Assembly (NCBI GenBank): GCA_016188985.1 | Contig: JACPGM010000053.1 | Coordinates: forward strand, 4,290-68,289 | From: Lentisphaerota bacterium | GTDB taxonomy: Bacteria; Verrucomicrobiota; Kiritimatiellia; JAAZAB01 | Length of the DNA: 64,000 nucleotides | Reading direction: 5' to 3' | Shown: piece after piece, positions 27,974-56,924 of the stretch | Position numbering within the stretch: position 1 is the first letter of the stretch | Layout: the number at the start of each line of letters is the position of its first letter | Position numbers and translations under genes: made by a program | The notes under the pieces: model-generated | What the model was told of the DNA's origin: nothing | Database searches by the model: none | Seen by the model: the letters and a program-made list of their open reading frames with translations, nothing else

Positions 27974-29251
27974 ATGGGGAACAACGCCCATTTTGAGCCG
28001 CCGCGCGGCATGCGGGATTTTTACCCCGAAGCTGTTGCCGCGCGCAACGCGCTGTTTGATGCCTGGACCCAATCGTCCCGCCTTTTCGGTTTCAGCCAGT
28101 ATGACGCCTGCGTAGTCGAATCGCTGGAGCTGCTTAAACGCAAGCGCGGCGACGAAATTGTCGAGCAAATCTACGCCTTCAAAGACAAGAGCAACCGGGA
28201 CCTGGCGCTGCGTCCCGAGATGACGCCCACCCTGGCCCGCCTGATTGCCGCACGGCAGGGCCAACTGGCCTTTCCCTTGAAATGGTTTGCCATTGCCCAA
28301 TGTTTCCGCTACGAGCGCATGAGCCGCGGGCGCAAGCGGGAACATTATCAATGGAATCTGGATGTGGTCGGCGAAACGGCCTTGGCTGCCGAGGTGGAAG
28401 TGCTGGCCTGCGCCGCGCACGCCCTGCGCGAGCTCGGCTTAGGCAGCGGCGATTACAAAATCCATATCAATAGTCGGGCTTTGCTGGCCGACCTGTTGAC
28501 GCATTCCGGCGTGGCCCCGGCCTTTCATCCCGCCACTTTTCTGGCCTTGGATAAACGCGGCAAACAGGAAGATGCCGATACCCTCCGGGCCCTCAAAGCA
28601 GCCGCTCTGGATGACAATGCCATCGCCGCCGTGTTCCGGATCATGGGCTTGCAATCGCTGGAGGAGGTCCGCCAATTGTTCGGTGGCGAGCAGCCCGCGC
28701 TCACCGCGCTGCAGACGCTTTTCCAGCTTTTGGCCGAGTATGGCCTGGGTGACATAGCCTGGTTTGATATTGGCATAGTGCGCGGACTGGACTACTACAC
28801 CGGCATAGTCTTCGAAGCGTTTGATGCCGAGCGGCAATTCCGGGCTATTTTTGGCGGCGGCCGGTATGACAATCTGCTCTCCGATCTCGGCGGCGCGCCC
28901 ATGACCGCCGTTGGGCTGGGATTTGGCGACGTGGTGATCGCCGAGCTGCTGGCCGAGAAGGGACGCCTGGTGGCGCAACAGACAAAGCTGGATTATGCCA
29001 TTGGCTATATGGATGATTCTCAGCGCTCCGCCGCGCTGCGCCTGGCTCAGGCTATACGCCGAACCGGACAGAGCGTGGATGTGGCTTTGCACGCGGAAAA
29101 ACCCAAGCAGTTCTTCGCGCGGGCGGGCAAGGGCGCCTTTCAGAAAGCGATCTATGTGGGCCCGGACGACGTAGCCCGCGGCACCGTCCGAATCAAAAAT
29201 CTTGATGAGCGCACGGAGGAGGAAAGGTCTTTGACCGAACTGCTGGGATGA
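27974..29251 (+). CDS. hisS: Histidyl-tRNA synthetase
   Basis: Class II motifs (PRGMRDF, FRYERMSRGRKREHYQ), C-terminal anticodon-binding domain; 425 aa. Confidence 0.93.
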   Translation: MGNNAHFEPPRGMRDFYPEAVAARNALFDAWTQSSRLFGFSQYDACVVESLELLKRKRGDEIVEQIYAFKDKSNRDLALRPEMTPTLARLIAARQGQLAFPLKWFAIAQCFRYERMSRGRKREHYQWNLDVVGETALAAEVEVLACAAHALRELGLGSGDYKIHINSRALLADLLTHSGVAPAFHPATFLALDKRGKQEDADTLRALKAAALDDNAIAAVFRIMGLQSLEEVRQLFGGEQPALTALQTLFQLLAEYGLGDIAWFDIGIVRGLDYYTGIVFEAFDAERQFRAIFGGGRYDNLLSDLGGAPMTAVGLGFGDVVIAELLAEKGRLVAQQTKLDYAIGYMDDSQRSAALRLAQAIRRTGQSVDVALHAEKPKQFFARAGKGAFQKAIYVGPDDVARGTVRIKNLDERTEEERSLTELLG

Positions 29252-29335
29252 AATTGGGGGAACAAAGGACGGAAGGGACAATCAGGACAGCAATGACTTC
29301 AAGGATGGCAAGAGATCAGACTTCTGCTGGTCGCC

Positions 29336-29360
29336 GTCTTTGGTGTCCTTGTTGTCCCTT
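29336..29360. repeat. Left direct repeat flanking the four-helix-bundle gene
   Basis: gtctttggtgtccttgttgtccctt versus gtctttggtgtctttgttgtccctt at 30009..30033 (24/25 identical). Confidence 0.8.
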
Positions 29361-29387
29361 GAGTCCTTTCCCCACCCGGAGCAAGCC

Positions 29388-29948
29388 ATGAACGCGGGTT
29401 TCATCCCGAAACACGGCGGTTACAAAAAGTTGCTCTCCTACCAGAAGTCCGAGATTGTCTACGATGCCACGGTCTATTTCTGCGATCGTTTCATTGATAA
29501 GCGCAGTCGCACCCATGATCAGATGGTGCAGGCAGCGCGCTCCGGCAAGCAGAACATCATCGAAGGCAGTATGGCCTCCGCGACCTCCAAGGAGACCGAA
29601 ATCACGCTGACCAATGTGGCGCGCGCCAGCCTGGAGGAATTGCTGGGCGATTACCGCGATTTCCTGCGCGGGCGCGGCGTGCAGGAATGGCCGAAAGACC
29701 ACGTCTATGCGCGCCGATTGCGCGCGCTCAACAAGATACCGGATGCTACTTATGCCACCTTTAAAAAAGGCATCGAGAACCCCGACCCGGTAATTTCCGC
29801 CAATGTGATCATCGGCCTGATCCGTGTGGCCAGCTACCTGCTGGATCGGCAGATCCGGCATTTGGAGCGCGCCTTCGTCAAAGAAGGCGGCCTGCGCGAG
29901 CGCATGACCCGCGCCCGTCTCGAAGAACGAAGAAAGTCCGGATCATAA
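29388..29948 (+). CDS. Four-helix-bundle protein (TIGR02436-like, '23S rRNA intervening-sequence protein' family)
   Basis: ~186 aa all-helical, with the family-typical N-terminal segment; flanked by ~35-bp direct repeats. Confidence 0.6.
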   Translation: MNAGFIPKHGGYKKLLSYQKSEIVYDATVYFCDRFIDKRSRTHDQMVQAARSGKQNIIEGSMASATSKETEITLTNVARASLEELLGDYRDFLRGRGVQEWPKDHVYARRLRALNKIPDATYATFKKGIENPDPVISANVIIGLIRVASYLLDRQIRHLERAFVKEGGLRERMTRARLEERRKSGS

Positions 29949-30008
29949 GCCGCTTTAGATGCCTCAAAGGTCGGCAAATACTGCCAAGGCTCTCATGATT
30001 GCGGGGCT

Positions 30009-30033
30009 GTCTTTGGTGTCTTTGTTGTCCCTT
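30009..30033. repeat. Right direct repeat flanking the four-helix-bundle gene
   Basis: See 29336..29360. Confidence 0.8.
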
Positions 30034-30154
30034 TGGTCTTTTGCCGCTCAGGGTAATCGGATGGGAGTGTTAAATGGAACAATCCGGTTCGGTCTCAGGC
30101 TGACCAGGTCCCGGCACAGGTATAGATAACGCATGAAAATCTTACAAATTATTG

Positions 30155-30183
30155 TTGACTTACTTATTGATATATGTTTAACT
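30155..30183 (+). promoter_or_regulatory. Candidate sigma70-like promoter for the vapBC-like operon
   Basis: TTGACT-N17-TTAACT about 10 bp upstream of the vapB start, in an AT-rich stretch. Confidence 0.2.
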
Positions 30184-30190
30184 TTGGGCC

Positions 30191-30484
30191 ATGAAAAGAA
30201 CCGGACCTAACGATTCGGTGCAGTTTTCCGTCAAAGGCCAGGTGGTCATTCCCCGCCGGCTGCGCCGGGAGTACCATATCGAGGAGGGCACGCGCGCCGT
30301 TGTCCAGGCGACTTCCGAGGGTATTCTGATCAAACCGGTGACCAGGGGTCGCATTCAGCGGTTCCGCGGCATCCTCAAGCGGAAACCGGGCGGGAAACCG
30401 TTTGCCCAGGAGTGGGCCGATCATAAGGCCGAAGAAAAAGCATTGGAGGAGGCCAAGTATGCCCGCCTCGCCGGTTCTCGATAG
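30191..30484 (+). CDS. vapB: AbrB/MazE/SpoVT-type antitoxin (VapB-like)
   Basis: SpoVT/AbrB swapped-hairpin motif VKGQVVIPRRLRREYHIEEGTRAVV; 3' end overlaps the PIN gene. Confidence 0.7.
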   Translation: MKRTGPNDSVQFSVKGQVVIPRRLRREYHIEEGTRAVVQATSEGILIKPVTRGRIQRFRGILKRKPGGKPFAQEWADHKAEEKALEEAKYARLAGSR

Positions 30485-30863
30485 TTTTGCCCTGCTGAGT
30501 TTTCTCCGCGATGAACCTGGGGCGGAGATGGTGGCAACGCTCCTGGAAAAGGCAGAGGAGCGCAGGCACCCCCTTCAGATGACCGAGGTCAATTACGCCG
30601 AGGTCCAATATATCGTTCGCCGCAAGGATGGGGAGGCTGCCTGGCGCATTGTCGCGGACGAACTGGCGACCATGCCCATCGAATTTCGGCCGGCCGACCG
30701 TCCGCTGGCCGATCAGGCCGCCGATTTCAAGACGCGTTTCCAGCTCAGCCTGGCCGCCGCCTTTGCCGCCGCCCTGGCGAAGCTCCGCAAGGCCGTACTT
30801 GTTACCGGCGATCCCGATTTTAAACAGGTTGAGGGTGAAATCGGGATCGGCTGGCTGAAATGA
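30459..30863 (+). CDS. vapC: PIN-domain toxin (VapC-like)
   Basis: N-terminal acidic VLDSFALLSFL, C-terminal TGDPDF; 134 aa from the internal Met, overlapping the antitoxin gene. Confidence 0.7.
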   Translation: MPASPVLDSFALLSFLRDEPGAEMVATLLEKAEERRHPLQMTEVNYAEVQYIVRRKDGEAAWRIVADELATMPIEFRPADRPLADQAADFKTRFQLSLAAAFAAALAKLRKAVLVTGDPDFKQVEGEIGIGWLK

Positions 30864-31008
30864 CCGCCATGCATTTATACGTCGGTCATGGATAATCGCA
30901 TTGCAATTATACGATAATGATGCAGATTGTCATTGTGAGGAAGCGTGTATTGGCTGAAGTGTTTTTCCCAGCCAGTGTTTACCGTGAGGATGCCGCAGAG
31001 AATTAGCC

Positions 31009-32304
31009 GTGAAAGAATGTGAAACCATAGAATTCAAGAAGAGTCTGTCAGAACTCAAGGAGGGCTTGGTCTCCATTGTGGCCATCCTGAACAAGCATGG
31101 CTCCGGTGAACTGTGGTTTGGCGTCCGCAACGACGGTGTCAGCGTTGGCCTGGATGCCACAACAAAGACCCTTCGTGATGTTTCGCAAGCGATTAGTGCG
31201 CACATTGAACCGAGGATTTTCCCGCACGTCACACTGGAATCCTGCGCCAGGGAGCTGGAGAATCTTATCCTTTCCAGGAATAGCGAGCGACTTCGCTGGG
31301 ACAACAAAGTGTGTGCTGTTTCTATCGGTGACCTGGATAAAGCCGGAATCAGGCGGTTTATCGCGCGTGCCGGACTCGTATGGGATACCCCGACAAATGC
31401 GCTGGAGAAACTCGGACTTCTTCATGCCGGAAAGCTGGTGAATGCGGCCCCGCTGTTCTTTGCGCGAAAGGCTCCGCTGCAACTGCGTTGCGCCGTTTTT
31501 CTGACGACCGAGAGTTCAACAATTATTGACCGGCATGATTTTGACGGCAACATCCTCGAACTGATAGAAGAGGCTCAACGCTACATTCTCAAAAACATCC
31601 ATATCGGCATGCGTGTCAAGGGGCTTTACCGCGAAGACGTGCCGGAAATCTCGGTTGATGCCCTGCGTGAGGCCATTATCAACGCCTTCTGCCATCGTGA
31701 TTACCGCGATCCGGATTATGTGCACGTTGCGATTTTCAAAGACCGCGTCGAAATCCGAAATCCTGGCAGGTTGTTCGGATCACTGACCTTGGACGATTTG
31801 CGCAAAGGATATGTGTCGCAACGGCGCAATCCATTGATCGCCGATCTGTTCCGCCGCATCGAGATGGTGGAAGCCTGGGGTCGCGGCATGCCGTTGATCA
31901 TCAAGAATGCTCCCGACGTCGTGTTTCGCGAAATCGGCAATCTTTTCATCGTTTCCTTCAACCGGCCATCTTATGCGGATGAATCTGGCAGGGGTGATGC
32001 GTCAAGTTCGGGAAAGGAAGTTCCGGTAAGAGGGTTCCTGAAAGAAAGTTCCGGCAAGAAGGTATCTGAAGAAGGTTCGGGAAAGAAGGTTCGGGAAAGA
32101 AGGTTCGGGAAAGATTCTGGAAAAACCGGACATCAAATACTCGATTTCCTTTCACAGCAACCCGAGATGACGGTTCCTGAACTTGCCGGGCGGCTGGGAC
32201 TAACGACTCGCGCGATTGAGAAGCAAATCGCCAAATTGCGGGATGCGAAATTACTGCTTCGCACAGGCGGACGTAAAATAGGGCGTTGGGAGGTGCAGAA
32301 ATGA
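31009..32304 (+). CDS. AlbA_2 (Schlafen-core) domain ATP-binding protein with HATPase_c_4-like and C-terminal wHTH ('putative transcriptional regulator')
   Basis: N-terminal ETIEFK...GELWFGVRNDG (AlbA_2/Schlafen core); central AINAFCHRDY...VAIFKDRVEIRNPGRL (RecG-C/HATPase_c_4-like); Gly/Lys-rich linker encoded by a 14-bp x3 tandem repeat; C-terminal HTH. Confidence 0.7.
   Translation: MKECETIEFKKSLSELKEGLVSIVAILNKHGSGELWFGVRNDGVSVGLDATTKTLRDVSQAISAHIEPRIFPHVTLESCARELENLILSRNSERLRWDNKVCAVSIGDLDKAGIRRFIARAGLVWDTPTNALEKLGLLHAGKLVNAAPLFFARKAPLQLRCAVFLTTESSTIIDRHDFDGNILELIEEAQRYILKNIHIGMRVKGLYREDVPEISVDALREAIINAFCHRDYRDPDYVHVAIFKDRVEIRNPGRLFGSLTLDDLRKGYVSQRRNPLIADLFRRIEMVEAWGRGMPLIIKNAPDVVFREIGNLFIVSFNRPSYADESGRGDASSSGKEVPVRGFLKESSGKKVSEEGSGKKVRERRFGKDSGKTGHQILDFLSQQPEMTVPELAGRLGLTTRAIEKQIAKLRDAKLLLRTGGRKIGRWEVQK
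32071..32112 (+). repeat. Perfect 14-bp x3 tandem repeat (gaaggttcgggaaa) inside the AlbA_2-gene coding region
   Basis: gaaggttcgggaaagaaggttcgggaaagaaggttcgggaaa; unit length is not a multiple of 3; encodes the EGSGKKVRERRFGK linker upstream of the C-terminal HTH. Confidence 0.9.
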
Positions 32305-32699
32305 CTTCCGCCGTGAAATGTGGGACAACGCGACGACGGACGGCCCGGGGGTGTCAGTTCCACGCGCTTGCGGACATCGAAAAATAAGCAGGAAACCGCT
32401 CCTGGCATTTTGACGGAGTGGATGTTCTGCCGGTGAGCGAGTTTCTGCGCCAGTTGCATCAGGGAAAGGTTTTTTGAAAAACACTAACCGAATATGTTTT
32501 GCCGCCGGAAATAAATATCCCCTTATTAAGGGCCACTGGGACAACAAAAAGCTAACTTCGCGTGAATGCACCCGGCTCCAGAGATACGAAGATTATTGGT
32601 CCAGATTCCGGCTGCGCTATATGTAAAAGTACCACAATCGCAATTCGCACTGGCAGACAGCCAGCCGTCAGAAAAACCAGTTAAAAATATGATATACAT

Positions 32700-34703
32700 G
32701 TGATGAAAACGACTTCAACCCCTCGTCTGACGCGCTCTTGGTTCGTCCGAACCATAGCTGAATTTGAGAGTGCATCTGACGATCAAGTACTTGCCGAACT
32801 GGTCAGGGGCAGTTTGTTTCCCATTCTGCAATCTCAGAGGGATGCTTGGCTCGCAGAACTGCCATTTTTGCGGAGGGCCCTGACCGGCCATACGGGAATG
32901 GTGTACCTTGAGTTCGCAATCCCGAGGATGGGGCATCGCGTTGATGCGGTCGTGTTGATAAACGGGATTGTTTTGGCAATAGAATTCAAGATCGATGCGA
33001 GGGAATACTTTCTGAGCGATGTTGACCAGGTATACGACTACGCGATCGATCTCAAATACTTCCACGAGGCCAGCCATAACCTATCGGTAGTGCCAATTCT
33101 CGTGGCATCACGGGCAAAGACCAGGTTCTTCCTGCTTGCACCACACGCGAGAGTATCTGGACTTTGTCAACCAATCTGCACGAATGCTGAGGATTTGGCA
33201 GCGACCATCAACTGTGTGATAAGCAAGTTGCCTGCGGAATGCGTTGACCCGGCCACATGGGAGGCTTCTCGTTATTGCCCAACCCCCACAATCGTTGAGG
33301 CCGCCCGCGCTCTCTACGCCGGTCATGGCGTCGCCGACATCTCGCGCAACGATGCAGGAGCCATCAATCTGAGCGAGACATCAGAACAGTTAGTGCGAAT
33401 CATTGAAACCTCGAAGTCCTTGGGCCAAAAGGCCATTTGTTTCGTCACCGGAGTGCCGGGTGCCGGGAAGACACTTGTGGGGCTTAACATTGCGACGAAG
33501 TATAACGACCCCAAGAGTGAACTTCATAGTGTGTTTCTTTCGGGGAACGGCCCTCTTGTAGCAATTCTCCGCGAAGCTCTGGCGCGAGACACCATTCAAC
33601 GCGAACGTGTTAAAGGAAACCGACTCAGGAAAGGCGACGCCATGGCACGGGTGAAGGCGTTTATCCAAAACGTACACCATTTTCGGGATGAATGTCTCCT
33701 TGATCAGTCTCGTCCGCCTGTCGATCATGTCGCGTTGTTTGATGAGGCGCAACGCGCCTGGGATCAGGAGCAGACGGCCTTGTTTATGCGCCGCAAGAAG
33801 GGGGTCACAGGCTTCAACGTATCGGAGCCAGAGTTCCTGATTTCGTGCATGGATCGGCGCAACGATTGGGCGGTGATTGTTTGCCTTGTCGGCGGAGGGC
33901 AAGAGATCAACACTGGGGAGGCCGGCATTGGGGAATGGATTGAGGCCGTGCAACGCGCATTTGGCGAGTGGCACCTGTACATCTCTCCTGCGTTAACGGA
34001 TAGCGAATATGGCGCGGGAAAACTTCTCGAAGCAATCAGGAACCGCGCTAATGTGCACTACCTGCAGGAACTTCATCTTGGCGTCTCAATGCGCTCATTT
34101 CGAGCCGAAAAGGTTTCGGCCTTCGTCAAGATGGTTTTGGATTTCGAAATTACCCGAGCGCGGGATCTATTGCAGGAGTTTGAGGGTCGCTATCCCATCG
34201 TGTTGACCCGCAATTTGGACCTCGCAAGACAATGGTTGCGCGATCAAGCCAGTGGAAACGAGCGGTTTGGGATTGTTGTATCATCGCAGGCAGAGCGATT
34301 GAAACCATATGCCATTGATGTTCGAACGCCTGTGAATCCTGTGAAGTGGTTTCTCGATGGAAAAGACGATGTGCGGTCATCGTACTACCTTGAAGATGTT
34401 GCGACCGAATTTCATGTACAAGGGCTTGAGCTCGACTGGGTGTGCGTATCGTGGGACGGCGATTTTCGCTACAACGAACACGGCTGGCAGCACCTCTCAT
34501 TTCGCGGCACCAAGTGGCAGCGCATCAACAAGGCTTCCAGAAAAAACTACCTCAAGAATGCCTATCGTGTCCTACTCACACGGGCGCGTCAGGGAATGGT
34601 GATATTCATTCCTGAAGGAAGTTCAACTGATCCAACAAGGCATCCGAGTTACTATGACTCGACTTTTGCCTACTTGCGGTCAATTGGGCTGCGCGAGTTG
34701 TAG
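32700..34703 (+). CDS. DUF2075 family P-loop ATPase (Schlafen helicase-like) with N-terminal PD-(D/E)xK-like nuclease motif
   Basis: N-terminal RVDAVVLINGIVLAIEFK (D-x12-ExK); Walker A GVPGAGKT, Walker B VALFDEAQ; 667 aa. Confidence 0.65.
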   Translation: MMKTTSTPRLTRSWFVRTIAEFESASDDQVLAELVRGSLFPILQSQRDAWLAELPFLRRALTGHTGMVYLEFAIPRMGHRVDAVVLINGIVLAIEFKIDAREYFLSDVDQVYDYAIDLKYFHEASHNLSVVPILVASRAKTRFFLLAPHARVSGLCQPICTNAEDLAATINCVISKLPAECVDPATWEASRYCPTPTIVEAARALYAGHGVADISRNDAGAINLSETSEQLVRIIETSKSLGQKAICFVTGVPGAGKTLVGLNIATKYNDPKSELHSVFLSGNGPLVAILREALARDTIQRERVKGNRLRKGDAMARVKAFIQNVHHFRDECLLDQSRPPVDHVALFDEAQRAWDQEQTALFMRRKKGVTGFNVSEPEFLISCMDRRNDWAVIVCLVGGGQEINTGEAGIGEWIEAVQRAFGEWHLYISPALTDSEYGAGKLLEAIRNRANVHYLQELHLGVSMRSFRAEKVSAFVKMVLDFEITRARDLLQEFEGRYPIVLTRNLDLARQWLRDQASGNERFGIVVSSQAERLKPYAIDVRTPVNPVKWFLDGKDDVRSSYYLEDVATEFHVQGLELDWVCVSWDGDFRYNEHGWQHLSFRGTKWQRINKASRKNYLKNAYRVLLTRARQGMVIFIPEGSSTDPTRHPSYYDSTFAYLRSIGLREL

Positions 34704-34828
34704 ACCGCTAATGCTTGCATCCATCTGACGTAACCGCTTCCCGACGCGGAGACATTCTTGCCGTCGGCGAAGGACAGGTTTTCCACATCGAGAGTTCCTT
34801 CGATTCCCTTAGCCGTATCGGATCCATC

Positions 34829-35080
34829 ATGCAGATACAGGAGACGCAGAAAGAGGGGGATATGCCTATGGAGTTTTCCCCGGAAGGCGACAAGATTGTC
34901 ATCTTTCTGTCCAAGAGCGATTTTGCGGAATCATGCCCGGCAGGTTATTTCGATGTAAAACAAAACGGAACCCCATGCGGTGAAGCAGGGCACGCACCAG
35001 CCTTTCGGGTTTTGTGTCTTTACACCGAATGCGGCTCATGTTCCAACTGCGTTGCTGTGGCGTTAAAATATCAATCATAG
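34829..35080 (+). CDS. Small Cys-rich hypothetical protein
   Basis: ORF with C-terminal CxxxxH...C..C.CxxC cluster; weak, composition only. Confidence 0.2.
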   Translation: MQIQETQKEGDMPMEFSPEGDKIVIFLSKSDFAESCPAGYFDVKQNGTPCGEAGHAPAFRVLCLYTECGSCSNCVAVALKYQS

Positions 35081-35463
35081 CGTCATTGCCTCTATTTGCT
35101 CTCCACTGTTGAGTAGACGATTTATCAAGGGAGGCTTGCGATCATCATTAAAGCCGGGACGTCAAGAGGCTCGAAGCGGACAAGTCTATTTCTGTTCTGT
35201 GCCTGCGCCGCTTGCATGTTCACAGCGGTTTTGAATGTATCAGGGCATATCCGGAAAAGCCAGTTGAAATCCACATAAATCCTCCTACGCCCAACGTCAG
35301 GCTATGAAGGACGGGACGGAGGGCGGAATGACGTACGCCGGACGCCGGCCGGAGTGTCCTCATCCGTCGCTCCAAGAGCTATGGATGGCAGGCAGGGAAC
35401 TTTTCATTGTTTTAATATGTAGATAGTTGTTGACAAGTCCCTACATTATGAAACACTGCCGTC

Positions 35464-36069
35464 ATGAGCACTAAGGCAAAATCTATTCTGGAACTCGCTC
35501 GGTATAAAGGGTTCATCAGGGCGCGCGACCTTATTCAGCACGCGATTCCAACTGTGTATCTTGGACGACTGACCCACTTGGGTCTGCTGGAGCGCGTTAG
35601 CCGCGGGCTGTATCGCCTGCCGGATTCTGAAGTGACGGAGCACTATTCACTGGCAGAGGTGGCCGCCAAGGTGCCGGGCGGGGTGGTTTGTCTGCTTTCG
35701 GCGCTCAACTTCCATATTATTGGCACACAACAGCCGCACGAGGTATGGCTGGCAATCCCGGAGAAGGCGCGCCAACCACGACTGAAAAGTCCGCGCCTGC
35801 GCCTATTCCGCTTCTCCAAGTCGGCCTTCACGGAGGGCGTAGAGACTCACGTTATCCAAGGGATACCGGTGAAGGTGTATAGCCCGGCCAAGACTGTAGC
35901 CGACTGCTTCAAGTATCGAAATAAAATCGGACTGGATGTAGCCATGGAAGCGCTCCGGGAAAGTCTGCGGTCCCGTAAGTGCACGCGGGAGGACATTCAT
36001 CGTTATGCCCGGATATGCCGGGTGTGGAATGTCATGCGGCCCTACCTGGAAATGGAGGCTTCGTCGTGA
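35464..36069 (+). CDS. abiEi: AbiEi-family antitoxin/transcriptional regulator (type IV TA)
   Basis: N-terminal AbiEi_4-type wHTH (LELARYKGFIRARDL...LERVSRGLYRL) plus C-terminal domain; 201 aa. Confidence 0.7.
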   Translation: MSTKAKSILELARYKGFIRARDLIQHAIPTVYLGRLTHLGLLERVSRGLYRLPDSEVTEHYSLAEVAAKVPGGVVCLLSALNFHIIGTQQPHEVWLAIPEKARQPRLKSPRLRLFRFSKSAFTEGVETHVIQGIPVKVYSPAKTVADCFKYRNKIGLDVAMEALRESLRSRKCTREDIHRYARICRVWNVMRPYLEMEASS

Positions 36070-36122
36070 CTCGCGCACAACCCGTGAATGATTCAACGAT
36101 AGAGCCCAGGAGGCGCAAATAA
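36066..36122 (+). pseudogene. Possible truncated remnant of an AbiEii toxin gene
   Basis: GTG overlapping the abiEi stop (typical abiEi-abiEii coupling) opens only an 18-codon frame before a stop; no room for a nucleotidyltransferase before aspS. Confidence 0.3.
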
Positions 36123-36245
36123 CGAACAAGCCTATTTCTGGGCCTGCGCGCCCGGAATGGTGTCCCACCTTCGTCTAAAGGGCTTCCACCGTCGCCCCTT
36201 CGACTTCGCTCAGGGCTTCGCAGGGCAGGCTGGTGTCTCCCTTCC

Positions 36246-38066
36246 TTATTCTCCGGGCTGTCGTCTGGTGTCTGTCGTCAGTCGTCGGTCTTCGGGCTTG
36301 GGCGGCAGGGCGAGCTTCAGGTGCAATTCGCGGAGTTGTTTTTCGGTGACGCCGGCGGGCGCGCCCATCATCAGGTCCTGTGCCTTCTGATTCATGGGGA
36401 AGGCAATGACTTCGCGAATGTTAGCTTCATTGGCCAACAGCATCAGAATGCGGTCAATGCCGGGGGCAATGCCGCCGTGCGGCGGCGCGCCCAGCCGGAA
36501 GGCGTTGATCAATCCACCAAAGCGCTCATCCACGGCTTGTTGATCATAGCCGGCCAGGGCGAAAGCCCGATACATGATTTCGGGATCGTGGTTCCGGATC
36601 GCGCCGCTGGAAAGCTCCACGCCGTTGCAGATAATGTCATATTGATAGGCCCGGATCGCGAGCGGGTCTTGTTCCTCCAGGGCTTGCATGCCGCCCTGCG
36701 GCATCGAAAATGGATTGTGCGAGAAAATGATCTGGCCGGTTTCCTCGTCCCGTTCAAACATCGGGAAATCAGTGACCCAGCAAAACCGGAAAATCCCCTC
36801 ATCAATCAGCTTCAGGTCCTGAGCCAGTTTCACGCGCAGGTCGGCGGTGATGCGGTTGACCTCGCGCGGCCGGTCGCAGACGAAGAACACCACGTCGCTG
36901 GCGTGAACTTCGCACTGCATGGCAATCGCTTCAAGCTGCGCGGGAGTCAGGAATTTGACAATTGGTCCCTTAACCCCCGCATCGGTCCAGACCAGGTACG
37001 CCAGGCCTTTAGCGCCCAGCCCCTTGGCATAATCCGTGAGCTTGTCAAAGAAACTCCGCGGCTGGGCGGCAATTTTCCCGACGGGGATCGCCCGCACAAT
37101 TCCGCCCTGCTCGATGACCGAGCGGAAAGCGTTGAAGCCGGATTCCTTGAAAAGGGCGGTCAGGTCGCGCATTTCGATCGGAATCCGCAAATCCGGCTTA
37201 TCGGTCCCGTATTTCAACATGGCTTCCGCATAAGGGATGCGCGGGAAAGGCGGAGCGTTAAATGGTTTCCGGGAGAATGTCCGGAATACGCTGGCCAGCA
37301 CATCCTCGACGACGACGAAGACATCGTCCTGGGTGGCGAACGCCATTTCGAGATCCAACTGGTAAAATTCGCCGGGGGAGCGGTCGGCGCGGGCATCCTC
37401 GTCGCGGAAGCAGGGCGCGATCTGGAAATAGCGGTCAAACCCGGCGACCATCAGCAACTGCTTGAACTGCTGGGGGGCCTGGGGCAAGGCATAAAACTTT
37501 CCGGGATGCACGCGGCTGGGCACGAGGTAGTCGCGGGCGCCCTCCGGGGAACTGCTGGTCAGGATCGGGGTCTGGAATTCCTGGAACCCCAGGGAGAGCA
37601 TACGCTCGCGGATAAAAGCGATTACACGGGCGCGTTGAACAATGTTGCCGTGCAGCCGCTCCCGGCGCAGGTCCAGGTAGCGGTAGCGCAGGCGCAGATC
37701 TTCCGGGCCGTCTTCCATCGCGTCCACCGGAAAGGGCAAGCTGCCGCAGGGTGAAAGCACCTGGATGGCTTCCGCCACCAGCTCGATTTCGCCCGTTGCC
37801 AGATTGGGGTTAACCGTTTCCGGCGAGCGCGCCACCACGGCGCCGGTGACGGTAATGACGCTTTCCAGGTGCAGGCGCTTGCTCAGGTTGAAAAATTCGC
37901 GGTCGGGCTGAATTACCACCTGGGTCAATCCGTAATGATCGCGCAGGTCAATAAACAGCAGTTGACCATGGTCGCGTTTGCGATAAACCCAGCCGGCCAG
38001 GCGCGCGCTCCTGGAAATATCGGTTGCTCGTAATTCACCGCAGGTGCGCGTACGATAAGGATGCAT
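36246..38066 (-). CDS. aspS: Aspartyl-tRNA synthetase
   Basis: N-terminal OB anticodon-binding domain, class II motifs ([19 protein letters not shown]); start at [12 protein letters not shown]. Confidence 0.93.
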
Positions 38067-38130
38067 GGGGAATTTTCGATTTATGATTGGTGATTTTTGG
38101 TGACTACTCAGGTCATTCAACTGTTCCAGC

Positions 38131-38235
38131 GGCCGCACAGGCTGTGCGGCCCTACCATATTTTCATGCCATAGGCAGACCCGCCTATGGCGGGACATCTT
38201 CCCATTGGTAGGGCGGGACAGTCTTGTCCCGCCGG
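38131..38235. repeat. Intergenic repeat family B copy 2 (inverted; upstream of aspS)
   Basis: ggccgcacaggctgtgcggccctacc...ccataggcagacccgcctatggcgggacatcttcccattggtagggcgggacagtcttgtcccgcc. Confidence 0.8.
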
Positions 38236-49006: not shown

Positions 49007-49561
49007 ATGGTTTGGAGTAATCAACAGAATATTCGCTCGCGATCGTTCACTTGCGGCTACTGTGGCAACGTTGTCGCGTCCGGTGTTGGCTTTCTTCACC
49101 ACAATGACCTGGACAAACGCGTACACATCTGCCCACATTGTGATGAGCCGTCGTACATCACAAGCAAGAAGCAGGTTCCGGGTGTTGCGCCTGGCAATGA
49201 GATAGCGGCCCTTCCCGACGACATCGAGGCCCTTTACAAGGAGGCGCGCAACAGCGTCGCTGCGTCCGCCCACACAGGCGCCGTGCTGTTGTGCCGCAAG
49301 ATACTGATGAACACTGCGGTCTCGCAAGGTGCGCCTCAGAATCAGTCATTCCTCGACTATGTTCAGTACCTGGCCGATAACGGATATGTCCCACCAAAGG
49401 GCAAGGGCTGGGTAGACCATATCCGGAAGAAGGGAAACGAGGCTACACACGAGATCAAAGCCATGGGCAAGACCGACTCAGAGGAGCTCATTCTCTTTGT
49501 TGAGATGCTGTTGAAGTTCATTTATGAGTTTCCGAGTAAGATTCCTGCGAACAAGCCATGA
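49007..49561 (+). CDS. DUF4145 domain protein with N-terminal zinc ribbon
   Basis: CGYCGN...CPHCD zinc ribbon; C-terminal helical domain matching DUF4145 (often linked to restriction-modification loci). Confidence 0.55.
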   Translation: MVWSNQQNIRSRSFTCGYCGNVVASGVGFLHHNDLDKRVHICPHCDEPSYITSKKQVPGVAPGNEIAALPDDIEALYKEARNSVAASAHTGAVLLCRKILMNTAVSQGAPQNQSFLDYVQYLADNGYVPPKGKGWVDHIRKKGNEATHEIKAMGKTDSEELILFVEMLLKFIYEFPSKIPANKP

Positions 49562-49630
49562 CCTGCTGCCTAACAACGGCTTGCAGCGGAGGCCGCCGCG
49601 GCAGAAACCGTGTCGAGTAAGGCCGGAGGA

Positions 49631-50530
49631 TCAATATGTGAGGAGGAGGCGATCATGGACGACCTCATCCTCAAGCGATTCGCCCTCTCTCTGAAAACGC
49701 CGCAGCATGCTTCTGCCGCAATCCAAGAACACTTCTCGCTCAAATAGACCGTCCGGGATTCCCAGTTTACAGTCCACGCGACCGGATTTCTTTTTGCCGT
49801 CAATACTTAGGGCAACCCGAACACCGCGTGTCTTGCAGTAGGCAATGGCGCGCATCAACCGCTGCAAAGAGAAGTCTTGCCCCCGGTACAAGATTGCCTG
49901 ACTACAGACATAGGGCGGGTCGCAGTACACAAGATCTCTCTCCTTGGCCAGAGACATAGCCTCTTCAAAGTCCATCTGCCGGAAGTCCGCCCCTGCCGTC
50001 CGCCGCAGCCATATGTCAACACGCTGCGCGAATGATCCCGGCGCGATAGGGTCGTGAATGCCGCATGGCGTCGAAATGTACCCATCGCTCTTGCGAAACC
50101 GGACAACCCCTCCGTAGCAACTCCGGCAAATGAACAAGAGATCAGGGCCATTCGGCTTGGCGTTGTAGTTTGCCTTTATCTGCTCGTATCCAGCCGGTTT
50201 GCCTAATTCTCGGAATTCGGTGTACCGACTTCTGTACCACTCCGCGAGTTGGTTGGGGGAATCGTGAAGACACCGCCAAATCTCCATGAGCGGGCCGCAG
50301 ATATCGGAACCCACGGCAGCCGGAGGCTGAAGTGCTGCAAGAACGGCCCCACTTCCCAGGAACGGCTCCCGATATGTGTGAATGTCTGTCGGGAAAAACG
50401 ACGCTATCTTGTGAGCAAACCGTTGCTTGTTCCCTATCCACTTTAGAAGCTGGGTCTTGAACGGAGCCACGTGCTGGAACTCAGTTCCGTAGAACAGATC
50501 GAGAGTATCTTCTTCTTTGACTTTCATGAC
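49631..50530 (-). CDS. DNA adenine methyltransferase, Dam/D12 class (alpha-type N6-adenine MTase)
   Basis: N-terminal LKWIGNKQRFAHKI (motif I-like), catalytic DLVYCDPPY (DPPY); ~300 aa. Confidence 0.85.
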   Translation of the reverse strand, partial: VMKVKEEDTLDLFYGTEFQHVAPFKTQLLKWIGNKQRFAHKIASFFPTDIHTYREPFLGSGAVLAALQPPAAVGSDICGPLMEIWRCLHDSPNQLAEWYRSRYTEFRELGKPAGYEQIKANYNAKPNGPDLLFICRSCYGGVVRFRKSDGYISTPCGIHDPIAPGSFAQRVDIWLRRTAGADFRQMDFEEAMSLAKERDLVYCDPPYVCSQAILYRGQDFSLQRLMRAIAYCKTRGVRVALSIDGKKKSGRVDCKLGIPDGLFEREVFLDCGRSMLRRFQREGESLEDEVVHDRLLLTY

Positions 50531-50586
50531 GTGCCTACAATATCCCGATTTGGGATTATTGTCAACCATATTATATACTCCCTCAC

Positions 50587-53283: not shown

Positions 53284-53366
53284 TCTTTAATGCGCCGGGG
53301 TGGCGAAATGGCAGACGCGCCGGACTCAAAATCCGGTGGTGGCAACACCATGAGGGTTCAAGTCCC
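53284..53366 (+). tRNA. tRNA-Leu (anticodon CAA)
   Basis: Hand-folded: acceptor GCCGGGG/CTCCGGC (one GU pair), D-arm GCG-AAATGGCAGA-CGC, anticodon stem CCGGA/TCCGG with loop CTCAAAA (CAA), long variable arm GGTGGCAACACC, T-arm GAGGG-TTCAAGT-CCCTC, discriminator A; CCA not encoded. Confidence 0.85.
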
Positions 53367-53382
53367 TCCTCCGGCACTATTT

Positions 53383-53470
53383 ATTATTGCGTGGTGGCAA
53401 CACCATGAGGGTTCCCCGCCGGAGGCTGGTCCGCCTAAGGCGGAAAGTCCCTCCTCCGGCACTCAGTCTC
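53383..53470 (+). repeat. Degenerate partial duplicate of the tRNA-Leu 3' half, interrupted by a 'ccgcc-N-ggcgga' repeat core
   Basis: tggtggcaacaccatgagggtt and gtccctcctccggcact repeat the tRNA variable/T/acceptor segments 20 bp downstream of the intact tRNA, with cccgccggaggctggtccgcctaaggcggaaa replacing the T-loop. Confidence 0.7.
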
Positions 53471-53541
53471 TGATGGGTTCTTGCTCTTACGGTAAGTCCG
53501 ATCTAAGGCGGGCTAAAGCCCTCAACCCAATTCATTGACAA

Positions 53542-53648
53542 CTACGAAATGCGCGAATGGACGCGAAACAATTTTTAATGGGCTTATTTCGTGTTTTTAG
53601 CGTGTTTCGTAGTTTCCGCCTGTGCGGATCCGCCGGGGCGGAAATTTT
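53542..53648. repeat. Intergenic repeat family A copy 3
   Basis: actacgaaatgcgcgaatgg...gtgtttcgtagtttccgcctgtgcggatccgccggggcggaaa. Confidence 0.8.
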
Positions 53649-53680
53649 CTTGTTTTTTGTGACGGTTTTGCGTGTATCAG

Positions 53681-54766
53681 CTAACCGAGGGTCTTGGTCA
53701 CTTTGGCCAACTGCTTCATAATCGGCAGATTGTTCGGGCATTTCGGTTCGCACTTGCCGCACTGTATGCATGCGTCAGCACGCTTGCCAGCTTCCTTCGC
53801 CGCATACTGTGCCCGGGCCCAGTCCGTCATGCCGTAGACCTTGCCCAGGTTGTAGAGATGGAAGTTGCCGGGGATATCCACTCCCTGCGGGCACTCCTTG
53901 CAATAGCCGCACATAGTGCAGAACCTCTCGCCCAGCGAGTGGAGCTCGTCCAGTATCGCGTCCATTCGCCGGAAGTCTTCGGCATTGGCGCCGTGGAAGT
54001 TGTTCGCCGTCTCCAAGTTCTCGCGCAGCATCTCCAGCGTATTCATGCCGGAGCAGGCGGTGCTGATATCCGGGTTCGTCAGCACGAATCTCAGTGCCGC
54101 GTCGGCGGTGGTCTTCGCGCCGCCGGAGATGAATTGCTGCAACTGAGGCGAAGGACTGGCAAGCATCCCGCCCGCCACCGGGCACATGGCAATCACACCC
54201 ACGCCCAGTGCGCCCGCGCGTTTGATGGTCGGCGCGTAGGCGCGGTTCAGCATGTTGTAGGGCACAGTAAAGCTGTCGAATATGCCCGTCTCGATGCACT
54301 TGGTGAAGTTTTCCGGCAAATCATGCCCGGTGAACCCGATGTGGCCGATGAGGCCCTCGCTTCGGGCCTTATCCAACGCCTCCAGCGCGCCACCCTTCTT
54401 CGTCAGAAACTCCATCATTGCCAGGCTGAACCATCCGACCTGGTAGAACTCCAGATAGTCCACGCCCAGAATCTGCATCTGCAGGTCTATCTCCGCGCGG
54501 TAGCTGTCGGCAGTGGTCTCAGCGTTGATTCCCGTCTTGCCGGAGACTATCAGACCACGGCTGCGGCCCTTCAGCCCGGGCGCAGTCAGGTGCTGGCACT
54601 TGCCGGCAATGTACCCCCGGGTGGTCTCGAAATAGTTGACTCCGGCGGCAATCGCCGTGTCCACGATCTGCTCCGCCAATTCCGGGTTGTTCGGATCAAA
54701 GCGCATGCATCCCAGCGCGAGCGCCGAAACCTTCAGTCCTGTCTTTCCCAAATTACGATACTGCAT
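53681..54766 (-). CDS. Aldo/keto reductase with C-terminal 4Fe-4S ferredoxin-like domain
   Basis: AKR N-terminus (MQYRNLGKTGLKVSALALGCMRF) and C-terminal CxxCxxC...CP / CxxCxxCxxxCP clusters; start at MQYRNLG. Confidence 0.8.
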   Translation of the reverse strand: MQYRNLGKTGLKVSALALGCMRFDPNNPELAEQIVDTAIAAGVNYFETTRGYIAGKCQHLTAPGLKGRSRGLIVSGKTGINAETTADSYRAEIDLQMQILGVDYLEFYQVGWFSLAMMEFLTKKGGALEALDKARSEGLIGHIGFTGHDLPENFTKCIETGIFDSFTVPYNMLNRAYAPTIKRAGALGVGVIAMCPVAGGMLASPSPQLQQFISGGAKTTADAALRFVLTNPDISTACSGMNTLEMLRENLETANNFHGANAEDFRRMDAILDELHSLGERFCTMCGYCKECPQGVDIPGNFHLYNLGKVYGMTDWARAQYAAKEAGKRADACIQCGKCEPKCPNNLPIMKQLAKVTKTLG

Positions 54767-54844
54767 TTGTGTTGCCTTGCTGTTTCGTCGCGAGTGTGCC
54801 GCACCCGGTTGTCTGGACACTGGTTTGCATTATGCCGCTACGGG

Positions 54845-55405
54845 TCAGCCTGATCTTGGTTCTGCCGCGAGCCATTGTCCGGCGAGTTCAAGGATCTGCA
54901 ATTTTGTCTGAAGATTTTGACGTCGAACGGGAATCATGTCCACAACATCGAGCCCACAAGTGGTCATCACTTTTTCCAGACTAACACAGCATGCCGGCGC
55001 GCCCCCGCCGCCGCCGCCGGCTACACACACGCCAATCGCGGGTTTCCCCTTTATAGACACACGGCCGGCCGCGTGTGTGCATATTCGGCGCAAGCGATCA
55101 GCGAATGCGCGCAGACTCTCGCTCAGGTCTGAATAATAAACCGGCGTAGCAAAAACTATAGCGTCGGCCTGTCTTATCTTTTCGACCAGGCCGCTCAGGT
55201 CGTCATCAATGACACAACGTCCCTCTTTCCGGCATAAACCCCAGCCATTATCGTCACATTGACGACAACGCTCGACCTTAAGCGTGGGTAGAAATACCTG
55301 TTCTGCCGAGGCCCCGGCCTTCGCCAAACCTTTCCGCACGGCATCAGCAGCCAGGGCCGTCTGACCATTCGGATTTCTGCTCCCGCATATCAATATAGTT
55401 TGCAT
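54845..55405 (-). CDS. Flavodoxin-like / NADPH-dependent FMN reductase family protein (iron-sulfur flavoprotein-like)
   Basis: MQTILICGSRNPNGQT flavodoxin-like start, N-terminal Cys cluster CRQCDDNGWGLC, VFATPVYY motif. Confidence 0.7.
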   Translation of the reverse strand: MQTILICGSRNPNGQTALAADAVRKGLAKAGASAEQVFLPTLKVERCRQCDDNGWGLCRKEGRCVIDDDLSGLVEKIRQADAIVFATPVYYSDLSESLRAFADRLRRICTHAAGRVSIKGKPAIGVCVAGGGGGGAPACCVSLEKVMTTCGLDVVDMIPVRRQNLQTKLQILELAGQWLAAEPRSG

Positions 55406-55857
55406 TCGTGCCTCCAGGTCTGTTCGCATCCCAACGAATAGACGTTTTATTCCTCAGTGCGGCGAATATAGCACGGTAGGATTGGGCGACAAGCCGATGA
55501 TATATATATTATCCTTACGGCCAACTAATGGGGTTTTAATTTATAGCTTTTTATCAAGTGTGCCGCGAGCATACAAGGACGGCCGAGATGGGACAGGCGC
55601 AAATTGAGCGGCATCCAAATCCTGATCATTACACCTGAAATACCTGCGCTGTCGTGATGCGAAAATGTATGTTGACGTTTACAGACACTTCATATTAGGT
55701 ATCCCTATATGCAACAAATAGGGATAGTCAGATATGATTACTTGTGATGATCTGCTGGAGCAGTCTGTCGCCTGGCCGACCGGGAGATAGCCTCCTCTTC
55801 ATGACCCACGCATATCACTCTGCGCTGTTCGTAGCCCCTCAGTCTTGTGGGCTTATT

Positions 55858-55990
55858 GTCATTCCCGACCTGATGCTACTCTGCGAAGTTCCGCCATAGC
55901 GGATCCGCCTTCTGGCGGAAAGCCTCCCTGCTCTGCGAAGCCGCTACGCAGGGCGTAGAAGAGTCGCTACGAAGCACGAGGGGAATGACA
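55858..55990. repeat. Repeat family H-like copy with inserted ccgcc..ggcggatccgcc core
   Basis: gtcattcccgacc...ccgccatagcggatccgccttctggcggaaagcc...gaggggaatgaca. Confidence 0.6.
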
Positions 55991-56050
55991 GTGTTGATGT
56001 TCACGACCTACCCACAAGACTGAGGCCTTACCGCTGTTCAACGAAAGATA

Positions 56051-56080
56051 TTGACGCAGGCAAAGAGACGGTGGTAATCT
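56051..56080 (+). promoter_or_regulatory. Candidate sigma70-like promoter for the RelE/ParE-like TA pair
   Basis: TTGACG-N18-TAATCT located 36 bp upstream of the antitoxin ATG. Confidence 0.25.
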
Positions 56081-56115
56081 AAAAATCAAATGCGGGGAAA
56101 TACGGAGGATATGAC

Positions 56116-56334
56116 ATGACAGCACTATTGGAGCAAGTCTTTAAAAAGGCGTCTGCTCTTCCCGCGGACATTCAGGACATCTTGGCAGCCGAATTTCTCC
56201 AAGAAATCGAATGGGAATCACAGTGGGACGCCACTCTGAAAAAAACGCAGGATGCGTTAGGCAAACTGACGATGGCCGCAATGGCAGAACACAAAAATGG
56301 CAAGACCGAGGAAATGGGATTTGACGAATTGTGA
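56116..56334 (+). CDS. Type II antitoxin (small helical; partner of RelE/ParE-like toxin)
   Basis: 72 aa acidic protein, ATGA 4-nt overlap with the downstream toxin gene. Confidence 0.55.
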   Translation: MTALLEQVFKKASALPADIQDILAAEFLQEIEWESQWDATLKKTQDALGKLTMAAMAEHKNGKTEEMGFDEL

Positions 56335-56600
56335 AGTCTTGTCTTACCAAGGACTTCCGCATCTGTTTTGCTGAACTTCCGGATCGCGTCCAGCGCCTTG
56401 CGCGAGAGAACTACAGGCTATGGAAATGCAATCCCTATCATCCGAGTCTTTCTTTCAAACGGGTCGGCAGGCGATATCCGACATACTCCGTTAGAATCGG
56501 TCTTGGCTGGCGGGCACTTGGTTTCCGAGAGAATGACACACTCGTTTGGTTTTGGATCGGCTCTCATGCCGATTACGAGCGACGGATTCAAAAACTCTGA
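56331..56600 (+). CDS. RelE/ParE-superfamily toxin (HigB/RelE-like)
   Basis: 89 aa basic protein with a C-terminal Arg/His/Tyr-rich cluster typical of RelE/ParE-fold toxins. Confidence 0.55.
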   Translation: MKSCLTKDFRICFAELPDRVQRLARENYRLWKCNPYHPSLSFKRVGRRYPTYSVRIGLGWRALGFRENDTLVWFWIGSHADYERRIQKL

Positions 56601-56737
56601 GAATCATCGAACAAAGCGGCGGAAGCTATCGCCCCGCAAGGCGGGGCTCAGCCTCAACGCTGACGTCGGTTAACGATGTGCTGATGAAAAAGTTAAGGCA
56701 GTTGTAAAATTCAGGCATGGTTCAAAACCCCGTGGTT

Positions 56738-56776
56738 TCAGGTTCCGCCGGAGGCGGATCTGCCTCAGGCATGAAA
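56738..56776. repeat. Isolated ccgcc-N-ggcggatctgcc-N-ggcatga repeat core
   Basis: ccgccggaggcggatctgcctcaggcatgaaac, nearly identical to the core inside 9235..9347. Confidence 0.7.
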
Positions 56777-56924
56777 CAATTCTCGCATGGAGATGGAGGG
56801 CGGACCTCCGTGTCCGCCGCGGCGATGACGGAGCATCGCCCTCCATGACGCATGCAGTCCGATACCTTGAATTGAACCAAGCTAAAATTCATAACGGAAC
56901 AACCGATAGGCAAGGAGGTGTGAT

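Follow-up and report, generated by a model that had tools for sequence, protein, structure and literature searches.

How does the spacer between two housekeeping genes come to hold toxin–antitoxin (TA) and defence genes, and how much of that DNA is still functional? The question is raised by the DNA between the aminoacyl-tRNA synthetase genes hisS and aspS in a stretch of 64,000 nucleotides (nt) from a contig of a Lentisphaerota bacterium, hereafter called the window. Coordinates are window positions unless another locus is named, and L numbers denote the compared relatives and homologue contexts. hisS (27974-29251, plus strand) and aspS (36246-38138, minus strand) converge on a spacer of 6,994 bp. 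An earlier note on this DNA had described 30191-36122 as an accessory island, suggested to be horizontally acquired, of five elements: a VapB(AbrB-type)/VapC(PIN) pair, an AlbA_2 regulator, a DUF2075 ATPase, a small Cys-rich open reading frame (ORF) and abiEi. We put at about 85% the probability that the spacer is a hotspot for variable cargo, and that its accessory DNA stems from at least four or five separate gains and was eroded afterwards. Judged from its sequence, the island appears to be largely a graveyard with one live (predicted) defence gene.

Results

The spacer is empty or differently loaded in syntenic relatives

Both flanks scored above their NCBIfam cut-offs (hisS, TIGR00442, 322.6 bits; aspS, NF001750, 810.9 bits) and are the two synthetase genes that the earlier note had named. 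accA, beyond aspS, also passes its NCBIfam cut-off, and HU lies beside hisS. The gene order of the flanks (ilvD...HU-hisS / aspS-accA, all on one contig) is conserved. Using HisS, we retrieved 80 related loci, in which hisS is conserved; 24 of these keep hisS and aspS convergent. The spacer measures at most ~420 bp in 17 of the 24, including the closest relatives L006 and L011, and such essentially empty spacers occur over the whole range of HisS identity of the relatives (56-74%). Six loci carry one unrelated metabolic or transport gene at the site (three an MtaA/URO-D-like gene of 1 kb, two a sodium:solute symporter gene and one an S9 peptidase gene). L004 is the sole syntenic relative with a different defence island; its 6 kb hold AbiEii with an unrelated AbiEi, vapBC and an inverted DUF2075 gene (60% identical). 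A further locus, L001, is collinear with the window from HU through hisS, a four-helix-bundle (4HB) gene and vapBC up to its contig end.

The closest public relatives were uncultured Kiritimatiellia, Verrucomicrobiota and Lentisphaerae metagenome-assembled genomes (MAGs) with HisS identity of at most 75%. Exact-sequence look-up of the window HisS returned only a 1.9-kb contig and gave no match for the DUF2075 and AlbA_2 proteins. In a metagenome scan with AspS, relatives were at most 68% identical among the matches listed.

The borders of the island were read from the empty site of L011, in which the hisS stop codon is followed by a long hairpin, ~60 nt, a terminator-like sequence (…CAGCCTATTTCTG…) and the aspS stop codon. 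The window has a long hairpin directly 3' of hisS (29264-29369, plus strand; arms 29264-29297 and 29336-29369; RNA minimum free energy −63.7 kcal/mol, z −5.75). It is native and part of the target region, with its equivalent in the L011 empty site. Collinearity with L011 is lost near 30080 and regained at 36123. There a terminator-like hairpin downstream of aspS (36123-36150, plus strand; terminator-like site of aspS on the minus strand, 36147-36126), also native and kept beside aspS in L011 and L004, forms the right border of the island. The accessory DNA amounts to about 6.9 kb, spanning approximately 29373-36122, the 4HB gene included. Promoter and terminator scans of the island gave matches not above shuffled expectation.

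Composition and DNA identity set the island apart

The earlier note had judged the lower GC of 30191-36122 by eye. The computed value is 0.534, against 0.579 in the rest of the window (backbone ~0.58). This is the lowest value for any 5.9-kb stretch of the window, and every lowest-GC segment of that length overlaps the island. The non-coding share is also high (26.5%, compared with 13.9% elsewhere in the window). The claim that two of the intergenic stretches are AT-rich did not hold: their GC is 0.494 and 0.507, versus a length-weighted 0.523 for the other intergenic DNA of the window. As an argument for foreign origin it is weak, and the non-coding fraction and the codon statistics are stronger signals.

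For the codon statistics, the GC and codon-usage calculation proposed in the earlier note was run against 46 backbone genes, whose GC at third codon positions (GC3) is 0.692 ± 0.058. Atypical composition was found for the AlbA_2 gene (GC3 0.572, z −2.1; codon-usage z −1.4), for the DUF2075 gene (GC3 0.578, z −2.0; codon-usage z −2.2, second lowest when ranked against the 46) and, more weakly, for abiEi (GC3 0.649, z −0.75; codon-usage z −1.05). The 4HB gene (GC3 0.733) and vapB/vapC (0.704) are backbone-like, with z values of +0.2 to +0.9 for GC3 and codon usage. Three compositional classes thus lie inside 7 kb.

Although compositionally native, the 4HB gene and vapBC appear to have been exchanged more recently than the genomes diverged, because their DNA identity to L001 and L004 exceeds that of the flanking core genes. 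Identity to L001 is 91-92% for 4HB and vapBC, compared with 77.5% for hisS and 84% for HU; identity to L004 is 87-90% for vapBC, compared with 81-82% for aspS and accA.

The earlier note had counted flank-like composition and presence of the same genes in all relatives as evidence against acquisition. The composition differs from that of the flanks, and the genes are not common to all relatives. Horizontal acquisition is supported by composition, by synteny and, most directly, by the recurrence of the DUF2075 gene at 85-92% DNA identity in unrelated contexts (see below).

A four-helix-bundle gene and a VapBC pair with a damaged toxin

The accessory gene next to hisS (29388-29948, plus strand) encodes a 4HB protein of the 23S rRNA intervening-sequence/Avd-like kind (TIGR04258, 8.4e-22; TIGR02436, 2.5e-5). 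The earlier note had placed it in the flank. It is instead a small separate insertion, without counterpart in the empty sites of L011 and L006 and present in L001 at 90.9% nt identity. The gene lies between two copies of a 40-nt direct repeat that are 85% identical. Copy 1 (29333-29372, plus strand) falls in the 3' arm of the hisS hairpin and copy 2 (30006-30045, plus strand) is collinear with the L011 empty site, 30003-30051 of the window aligning to L011 11336-11384. The 25-nt core of the repeat occurs only at these two sites in the window (0 expected by chance). The element bounded by the repeats measures ~0.67 kb and is missing from the L011 empty site. The 5' arm of the hisS hairpin could also pair with the distal repeat copy and would then enclose the 4HB ORF (29264-30045), as in rRNA intervening sequences.

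vapB (30191-30484, plus strand) lies upstream of vapC (30459-30863, plus strand) and overlaps it by 26 nt (30459-30484). VapB has the AbrB/MazE fold (Pfam MazE_antitoxin, 5.5e-6; TIGR01439, 4e-7), its gene being 91% identical to that of L001 and 87% to that of L004, and VapC is a PIN protein (Pfam PIN, 2.6e-17). Position 100 of VapC is Ala (codon GCC, 30756-30758), whereas the L001 and L004 orthologues have Asp, which we take to be one of the metal-binding acidic residues of the PIN domain. The other three of the four acidic residues (D8, E43 and D118) are kept. VapC is probably inactive, since the third conserved acidic residue is replaced by Ala100. A PDB sequence search with the window VapC gave no match; the L001 orthologue found Mycobacterium tuberculosis VapC30 (PDB 4xgq), whose NYGD motif places its Asp opposite that of L001 in the alignment. 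The window pair resembles M. tuberculosis VapBC30 in that an AbrB-type antitoxin gene overlaps a downstream PIN toxin gene, and differs from VapBC type II TA systems, its own L001 and L004 orthologues included, in the A100 of the toxin.

Two further observations concern the DNA after vapC. In L001 (4178-4471), the 3' end of vapC occurs twice, as 106-nt copies with 82% identity, and these copies enclose a 183-nt insert that follows the gene. In the window, a near-perfect palindrome (30889-30933; ATTATACGATAA / TTATCGTATAAT region), common to L001, is found in the interval from vapC to the AlbA_2 gene; of the sigma-70-like matches in the island, the best (11 of 12, minus strand) lies within it.

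A shortened AlbA_2 regulator

The AlbA_2 module (30938-32400; gene 31009-32304, plus strand) is absent from L001 and L004. It appears to be a separate insertion, because L001 joins the equivalent of window position 30937 directly to that of 32401. All three domains of an AlbA_2 / COG2865-type regulator were matched in the protein (Pfam AlbA_2, 6.7e-11, profile 1-87 of 118; HATPase_c_4, 1.5e-19; a winged helix-turn-helix domain), but the AlbA_2 domain is short by 35 residues. The gap follows codon 79 (nt 31245); all five close homologues that were compared (P0122 and four others) have these residues. Loss of function of the shortened protein is a prediction from this deletion. A 14-nt tandem repeat of 7.9 copies (32006-32114, plus strand; Tandem Repeats Finder score 118) encodes the linker before the winged helix-turn-helix domain. 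One unit gained or lost would shift the frame, and linker lengths vary among the homologues. A homologue with 71% identity lies in a type I restriction–modification operon (L094 4395-13401), in the order hsdM, AlbA_2, KilA-N, hsdS, a second AlbA_2 and hsdR.

The DUF2075 gene encodes a predicted nuclease-helicase

The only apparently intact defence gene of the island is that of a DUF2075 / Nhi-like nuclease-helicase (cassette 32676-34707; gene 32700-34703, plus strand). The protein matches PF09848 (2.1e-82) and, over its full length, PADLOC PDC-S41 (1.9e-277; residues 11-667 on profile 2-653 of 657). It combines an N-terminal PD-(D/E)xK-type nuclease domain with a superfamily 1 (SF1) helicase domain containing Walker A and B motifs. 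Residues E71, D82 and E95-x-K97, the Walker A sequence GVPGAGKT and the DEAQ motif are invariant in 32 homologues. A full-length structural model had a pLDDT of 76, and its best Foldseek matches were human SLFN11 and SLFN14. Eukaryotic group III Schlafens (SLFN11, SLFN14; also the SLFN12 core) are among the closest known systems to the window genes.

Nhi is the nuclease-helicase SERP2475 of Staphylococcus epidermidis (Bari et al., 10.1101/776245). Nhi-like systems were defined by architecture, not sequence (Millman et al., 10.1101/2022.05.11.491447), and escape from them was mapped to a DNA methylase of the phage (10.1101/2022.08.27.505566). In Nhi as in the window protein, one polypeptide joins an N-terminal PD-(D/E)xK-type nuclease to a DUF2075 SF1 helicase. 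The window protein differs in that its similarity to the PADLOC Nhi model is confined to the P-loop region (residues 235-272, E 7.3e-5). It is also 26% identical to Bacillus plasmid proteins annotated as 'DNA/RNA helicase domain-containing'. By analogy, the protein would be a single-chain, Nhi-like nuclease-helicase that attacks phage DNA, and we infer that it is the sole functional defence activity left in the island.

The gene appears to be highly mobile. Its homologues reach 94% protein identity, and we found it in eight other contexts (loci L084-L093) at 74-93% DNA identity. The GC of the host DNA ranges from 0.48 to 0.64 in these contexts and that of the gene holds steady at 0.48-0.53. 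Upstream, similarity ends ~16-24 nt short of the start codon, and downstream it extends 4-6 nt past the stop codon. Neither terminal repeats nor a recombinase were observed with the cassette in the window or in L084-L093. The family is also present on 22 IMG/VR viral contigs at 26-54% identity when searched with an alignment; a search with the single DUF2075 sequence gave no match. An integron cassette was considered and rejected, there being no attC and the DUF2075 similarity ending 4 nt past the stop codon.

Debris of a Dcm/PDC-M33/Vsr system surrounds the DUF2075 gene

The two spacers on either side of the DUF2075 gene contain gene remnants. The first (32305-32699) holds a remnant common to L001 (32401-32508, plus strand; 84% identity to L001 4259-4365), with the short conserved frame WHFDG.DVLPV.EFLRQLHQ, and a remnant of a C5 cytosine DNA methyltransferase gene (dcm; 32474-32626, plus strand). 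The latter keeps ~50 codons, which align with residues 241-288 of the L096 Dcm (333 aa) at 40% identity (E 2e-10). A dcm remnant is also found upstream of the DUF2075 gene in L086. The window dcm remnant alone had no Pfam match, and the small ORFs of both spacers gave nothing significant in Pfam.

The second spacer (34704-35463) holds an internal fragment of a PDC-M33B-type gene and a fragment of vsr. The former (34742-34930, plus strand) comprises 62 codons (PADLOC PDC-M33B, 3.1e-10; profile 129-190 of 289), 60% identical to residues 128-189 of a 280-aa homologue in L096 (E 2e-24). Full-length homologues of 272-290 aa were found by an exhaustive HMMER search, and a word-indexed search gave only a self-like 83-aa ORF. 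The vsr fragment (34899-35078, minus strand) represents ~48 codons of the N terminus (Pfam Vsr, 1.5e-12, profile 2-47 of 74; TIGR00632, 7.2e-10, below cut-off), with the 134-aa Vsr of L096 as full-length reference. The small Cys-rich ORF of the earlier note (34715-35080) is accounted for by these fragments: its codons 10-71 are the PDC-M33B fragment, and its Cys-rich tail is the antisense of the vsr fragment.

L096 (2100-7032) contains a complete operon of five genes in the order Dcm (C5 methyltransferase), M33A, M33B, M33C (DUF6339) and Vsr, and on this operon the uncharacterised PDC-M33 candidate appears to be linked to Dcm and Vsr. In the window, the order is dcm fragment, DUF2075 gene, PDC-M33B fragment and inverted vsr fragment. 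The dcm and PDC-M33B fragments thus keep the order and strand of L096, with the vsr fragment beyond them. The differences are that the window retains only ~50, 62 and 48 codons of these genes, that M33A and M33C are absent, that vsr is inverted and that the DUF2075 gene stands in the place of M33A. Homology of DUF2075 to PDC-M33A was considered and rejected; the two are not homologous. Because the order of fragments around the DUF2075 gene matches the L096 operon, the comparison indicates that a Dcm/PDC-M33/Vsr system once occupied this site, the DUF2075 gene having later taken the place of its core.

An orphan abiEi next to aspS

The last gene of the island, abiEi (35464-36069, plus strand), encodes an orphan type IV antitoxin or regulator (PADLOC AbiEi, 9.8e-85, full-length; Pfam AbiEi_4, 1.1e-10, and AbiEi_1). 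It is 51-58% identical to plasmid abiEi genes that have abiEii next downstream. Like AbiEi of type IV TA systems, the window protein has an N-terminal winged helix-turn-helix and a C-terminal domain, and its gene retains the GTGA overlap of abiEi-abiEii pairs. The difference is that the abiEii nucleotidyltransferase toxin gene was not found. At its expected start there are instead 18 unrelated codons (36066-36122, plus strand; translation VTRAQPVNDSTIEPRRRK, then a stop codon), unlike the AbiEii N termini of L082 and L083, and only 176 nt separate the abiEi stop from the aspS stop.

On either side of the abiEi module stands an imperfect direct repeat of 33 nt (35177-35209 and 36123-36150). Copy 1 (35177-35209, plus strand) reproduces the aspS-proximal terminator-like sequence, which is itself copy 2; the 15-nt core occurs only twice in the window. 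Beside copy 1 lies a 59-nt element (35212-35270, plus strand) that is 88% identical to L004 16822-16880, where it lies between the L004 DUF2075 gene and aspS. We infer that VapB and AbiEi persist as toxin-less DNA-binding autoregulators.

Taken with the profile matches above, four of the five elements listed in the earlier note were confirmed (the vapBC pair, AlbA_2, DUF2075 and abiEi), and the fifth is no gene. Three of those present are damaged, by D100A in VapC, by the internal deletion in AlbA_2 and by the lack of abiEii. The packing of TA and defence genes that the note had described is real and extends to the PDC-M33/Dcm/Vsr debris.

Other possible accessory regions of the window

Outside the spacer, a DUF4145 gene and a D12-class (Dam-type) DNA methyltransferase gene (49007-50569), with slightly low GC3 (0.62-0.65), possibly form a small accessory module. 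At 53294-57800, a tRNA-Leu(CAA) gene (53294-53377) is followed by low-GC3 genes (0.52-0.57, two without Pfam matches) and by 1.46 kb without a long ORF (55430-56888). This region is possibly a second, tRNA-associated island.

Discussion

Origin and build-up of the island

Defence islands and variable hotspots between core genes have been described for E. coli, Pseudomonas and Vibrio. The hisS/aspS spacer resembles them in being a fixed site between housekeeping genes, empty or differently loaded in relatives, with mosaic composition and turnover of cargo. It differs in that it has no integrase or tRNA, lies in an uncultured, Kiritimatiellia/Lentisphaerae-like host of the Planctomycetes–Verrucomicrobia–Chlamydiae (PVC) group and holds mostly degraded cargo, and in that the cargo of some relatives is a metabolic or transport gene. 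The island is therefore a well-documented but ordinary example of a kind of feature already known.

On our reading, the separate gains would have been the 4HB gene, vapBC, the AlbA_2 regulator-like gene, a Dcm/PDC-M33/Vsr system later overwritten by DUF2075, and the AbiE module. In L001 and L004, each module is present or missing regardless of the others. The cargo would then have been worn down by deletion and point mutation, and lesions are seen in VapC, AlbA_2, AbiE, dcm, M33B and vsr.

The modules may have entered by recombination with DNA of related lineages or of (pro)viruses, with no integrase of the island's own. tRNA and Rfam scans of 29252-36245 gave no match, and no integrase, transposase or attC was found in the island. 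The genes and remnants described above fill most of the island and leave unassigned stretches of ~100-240 bp at the longest, so that there is no room for an integrase gene. Three insertions at the locus have direct repeats on either side, which are copies of the local target and share 82-85% identity. This figure equals the divergence between lineages, whereas a fresh duplication would give 100%, and cassettes may therefore have been imported together with an orthologous target copy from a related genome, for example by homology-facilitated illegitimate recombination, or by trans-acting recombinases. The junctions at the borders of the DUF2075 gene fit classical random recombination followed by selection for intact genes.

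Several points weigh against this account of serial gain and decay. The 4HB gene and vapBC are native in composition and common to L001 and L004, and part of the island could be old. The nearest relatives have only ~75% HisS identity, so that the order and timing of events rest on distant relatives. The proposed insertion mechanism is read from nothing but the repeats; neither a recombinase nor a donor molecule nor strain-level polymorphism was observed. It is a prediction that the DUF2075 protein is active, and likewise that VapC(A100) and the short AlbA_2 have lost their function. Finally, the window comes from a MAG, and single-base calls may be consensus artefacts.

Alternative explanations

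The repeats and junctions could also reflect a dedicated, recombinase-free hotspot, in which the terminator hairpins of two convergent core genes serve as entry points for cassettes of 0.2-2 kb, each with an orthologous target copy from another lineage. This would explain both the repeats of 82-85% identity and the movement of DUF2075 in an almost ORF-sized unit (−20 to +4). We consider such a mechanism improbable; if it is real, and illegitimate recombination with selection is not the cause, it would add a new way in which defence genes move.

Slightly less probable still is that the island is ancestral to the clade and that the empty spacers arose by deletion, that is by differential loss. 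The backbone-like GC3 and codon usage of the 4HB gene and vapBC, and their shared position in the window, L001 and L004, which represent three lineages, would be expected on this view. It has to accommodate, however, empty spacers in 17 of 24 syntenic relatives at 56-74% HisS identity, the closest ones L006 and L011 among them, and different cargo in the lineages that have any. Nor does it agree with the ~90% DNA identity of the DUF2075 gene to copies in unrelated contexts or with vapBC and 4HB being nearer to L001 (91%) than are the core flanks (77-84%).

A single integrative element (a prophage remnant, an integrative and conjugative or mobilizable element, or an integron array) that inserted once and has since lost its integrase is very unlikely. 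Defence genes often ride on integrative elements, DUF2075 relatives occur on viral contigs, and the imperfect direct repeats around the 4HB gene and the abiEi module resemble attL/attR. These repeats bound sub-modules, however, and not the whole island, which has no integrase, transposase, tRNA or attC-like site, and whose modules occur one without another in L001 and L004 and fall into three compositional classes within 7 kb.

Eukaryotic group III Schlafens join an AlbA_2-type core to a DUF2075-type helicase, and the neighbouring AlbA_2 and DUF2075 genes could be regarded as a two-gene 'split Schlafen' system. The Pfam names of the two domains (SLFN_AlbA_2 and SLFN-g3_helicase) and the Foldseek top matches of the DUF2075 protein, SLFN11 and SLFN14, agree with this idea, which is nevertheless largely refuted. 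In the eight other, independent contexts (L084-L093), close DUF2075 homologues have no AlbA_2 gene beside them, and the adjacency in the window therefore appears to be incidental. L001 lacks AlbA_2 between vapBC and the remnant found upstream of DUF2075, an AlbA_2 homologue (P0123) belongs to a type I restriction–modification operon, and in the window a debris-filled spacer of 395 bp separates the two genes. In addition, the DUF2075 protein has a nuclease domain of its own at the N terminus, and the window AlbA_2 gene carries the 35-aa deletion.

An assembly or binning chimera, which the MAG source and the composition shifts inside the island might suggest, is just as hard to uphold, given that L001 is collinear from HU through hisS, 4HB and vapBC, that the hisS/aspS spacer of L004 independently holds vapBC and a DUF2075 gene, and that both core flanks lie in conserved order (ilvD...HU-hisS / aspS-accA) on one contig.

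Implications

Serial gain and decay at one site thus remains our preferred explanation. Of lasting interest are the substitution of one defence system for another at the same site, the movement of PDC-S41 as an ORF-sized unit and the repeat-flanked insertions without an integrase. For the annotation of such islands, the locus carries a warning: 'intergenic' stretches and small ORFs often turn out to be remains of pseudogenes, and the TA genes there may be inactive. PDC-S41 emerges as a highly mobile and strongly conserved DUF2075 subfamily and is a good candidate for a Schlafen-like bacterial defence protein. The locus shows the gain of defence genes, their replacement in place (Dcm/PDC-M33/Vsr by a nuclease-helicase) and their decay in a poorly studied, uncultured lineage of the PVC group.

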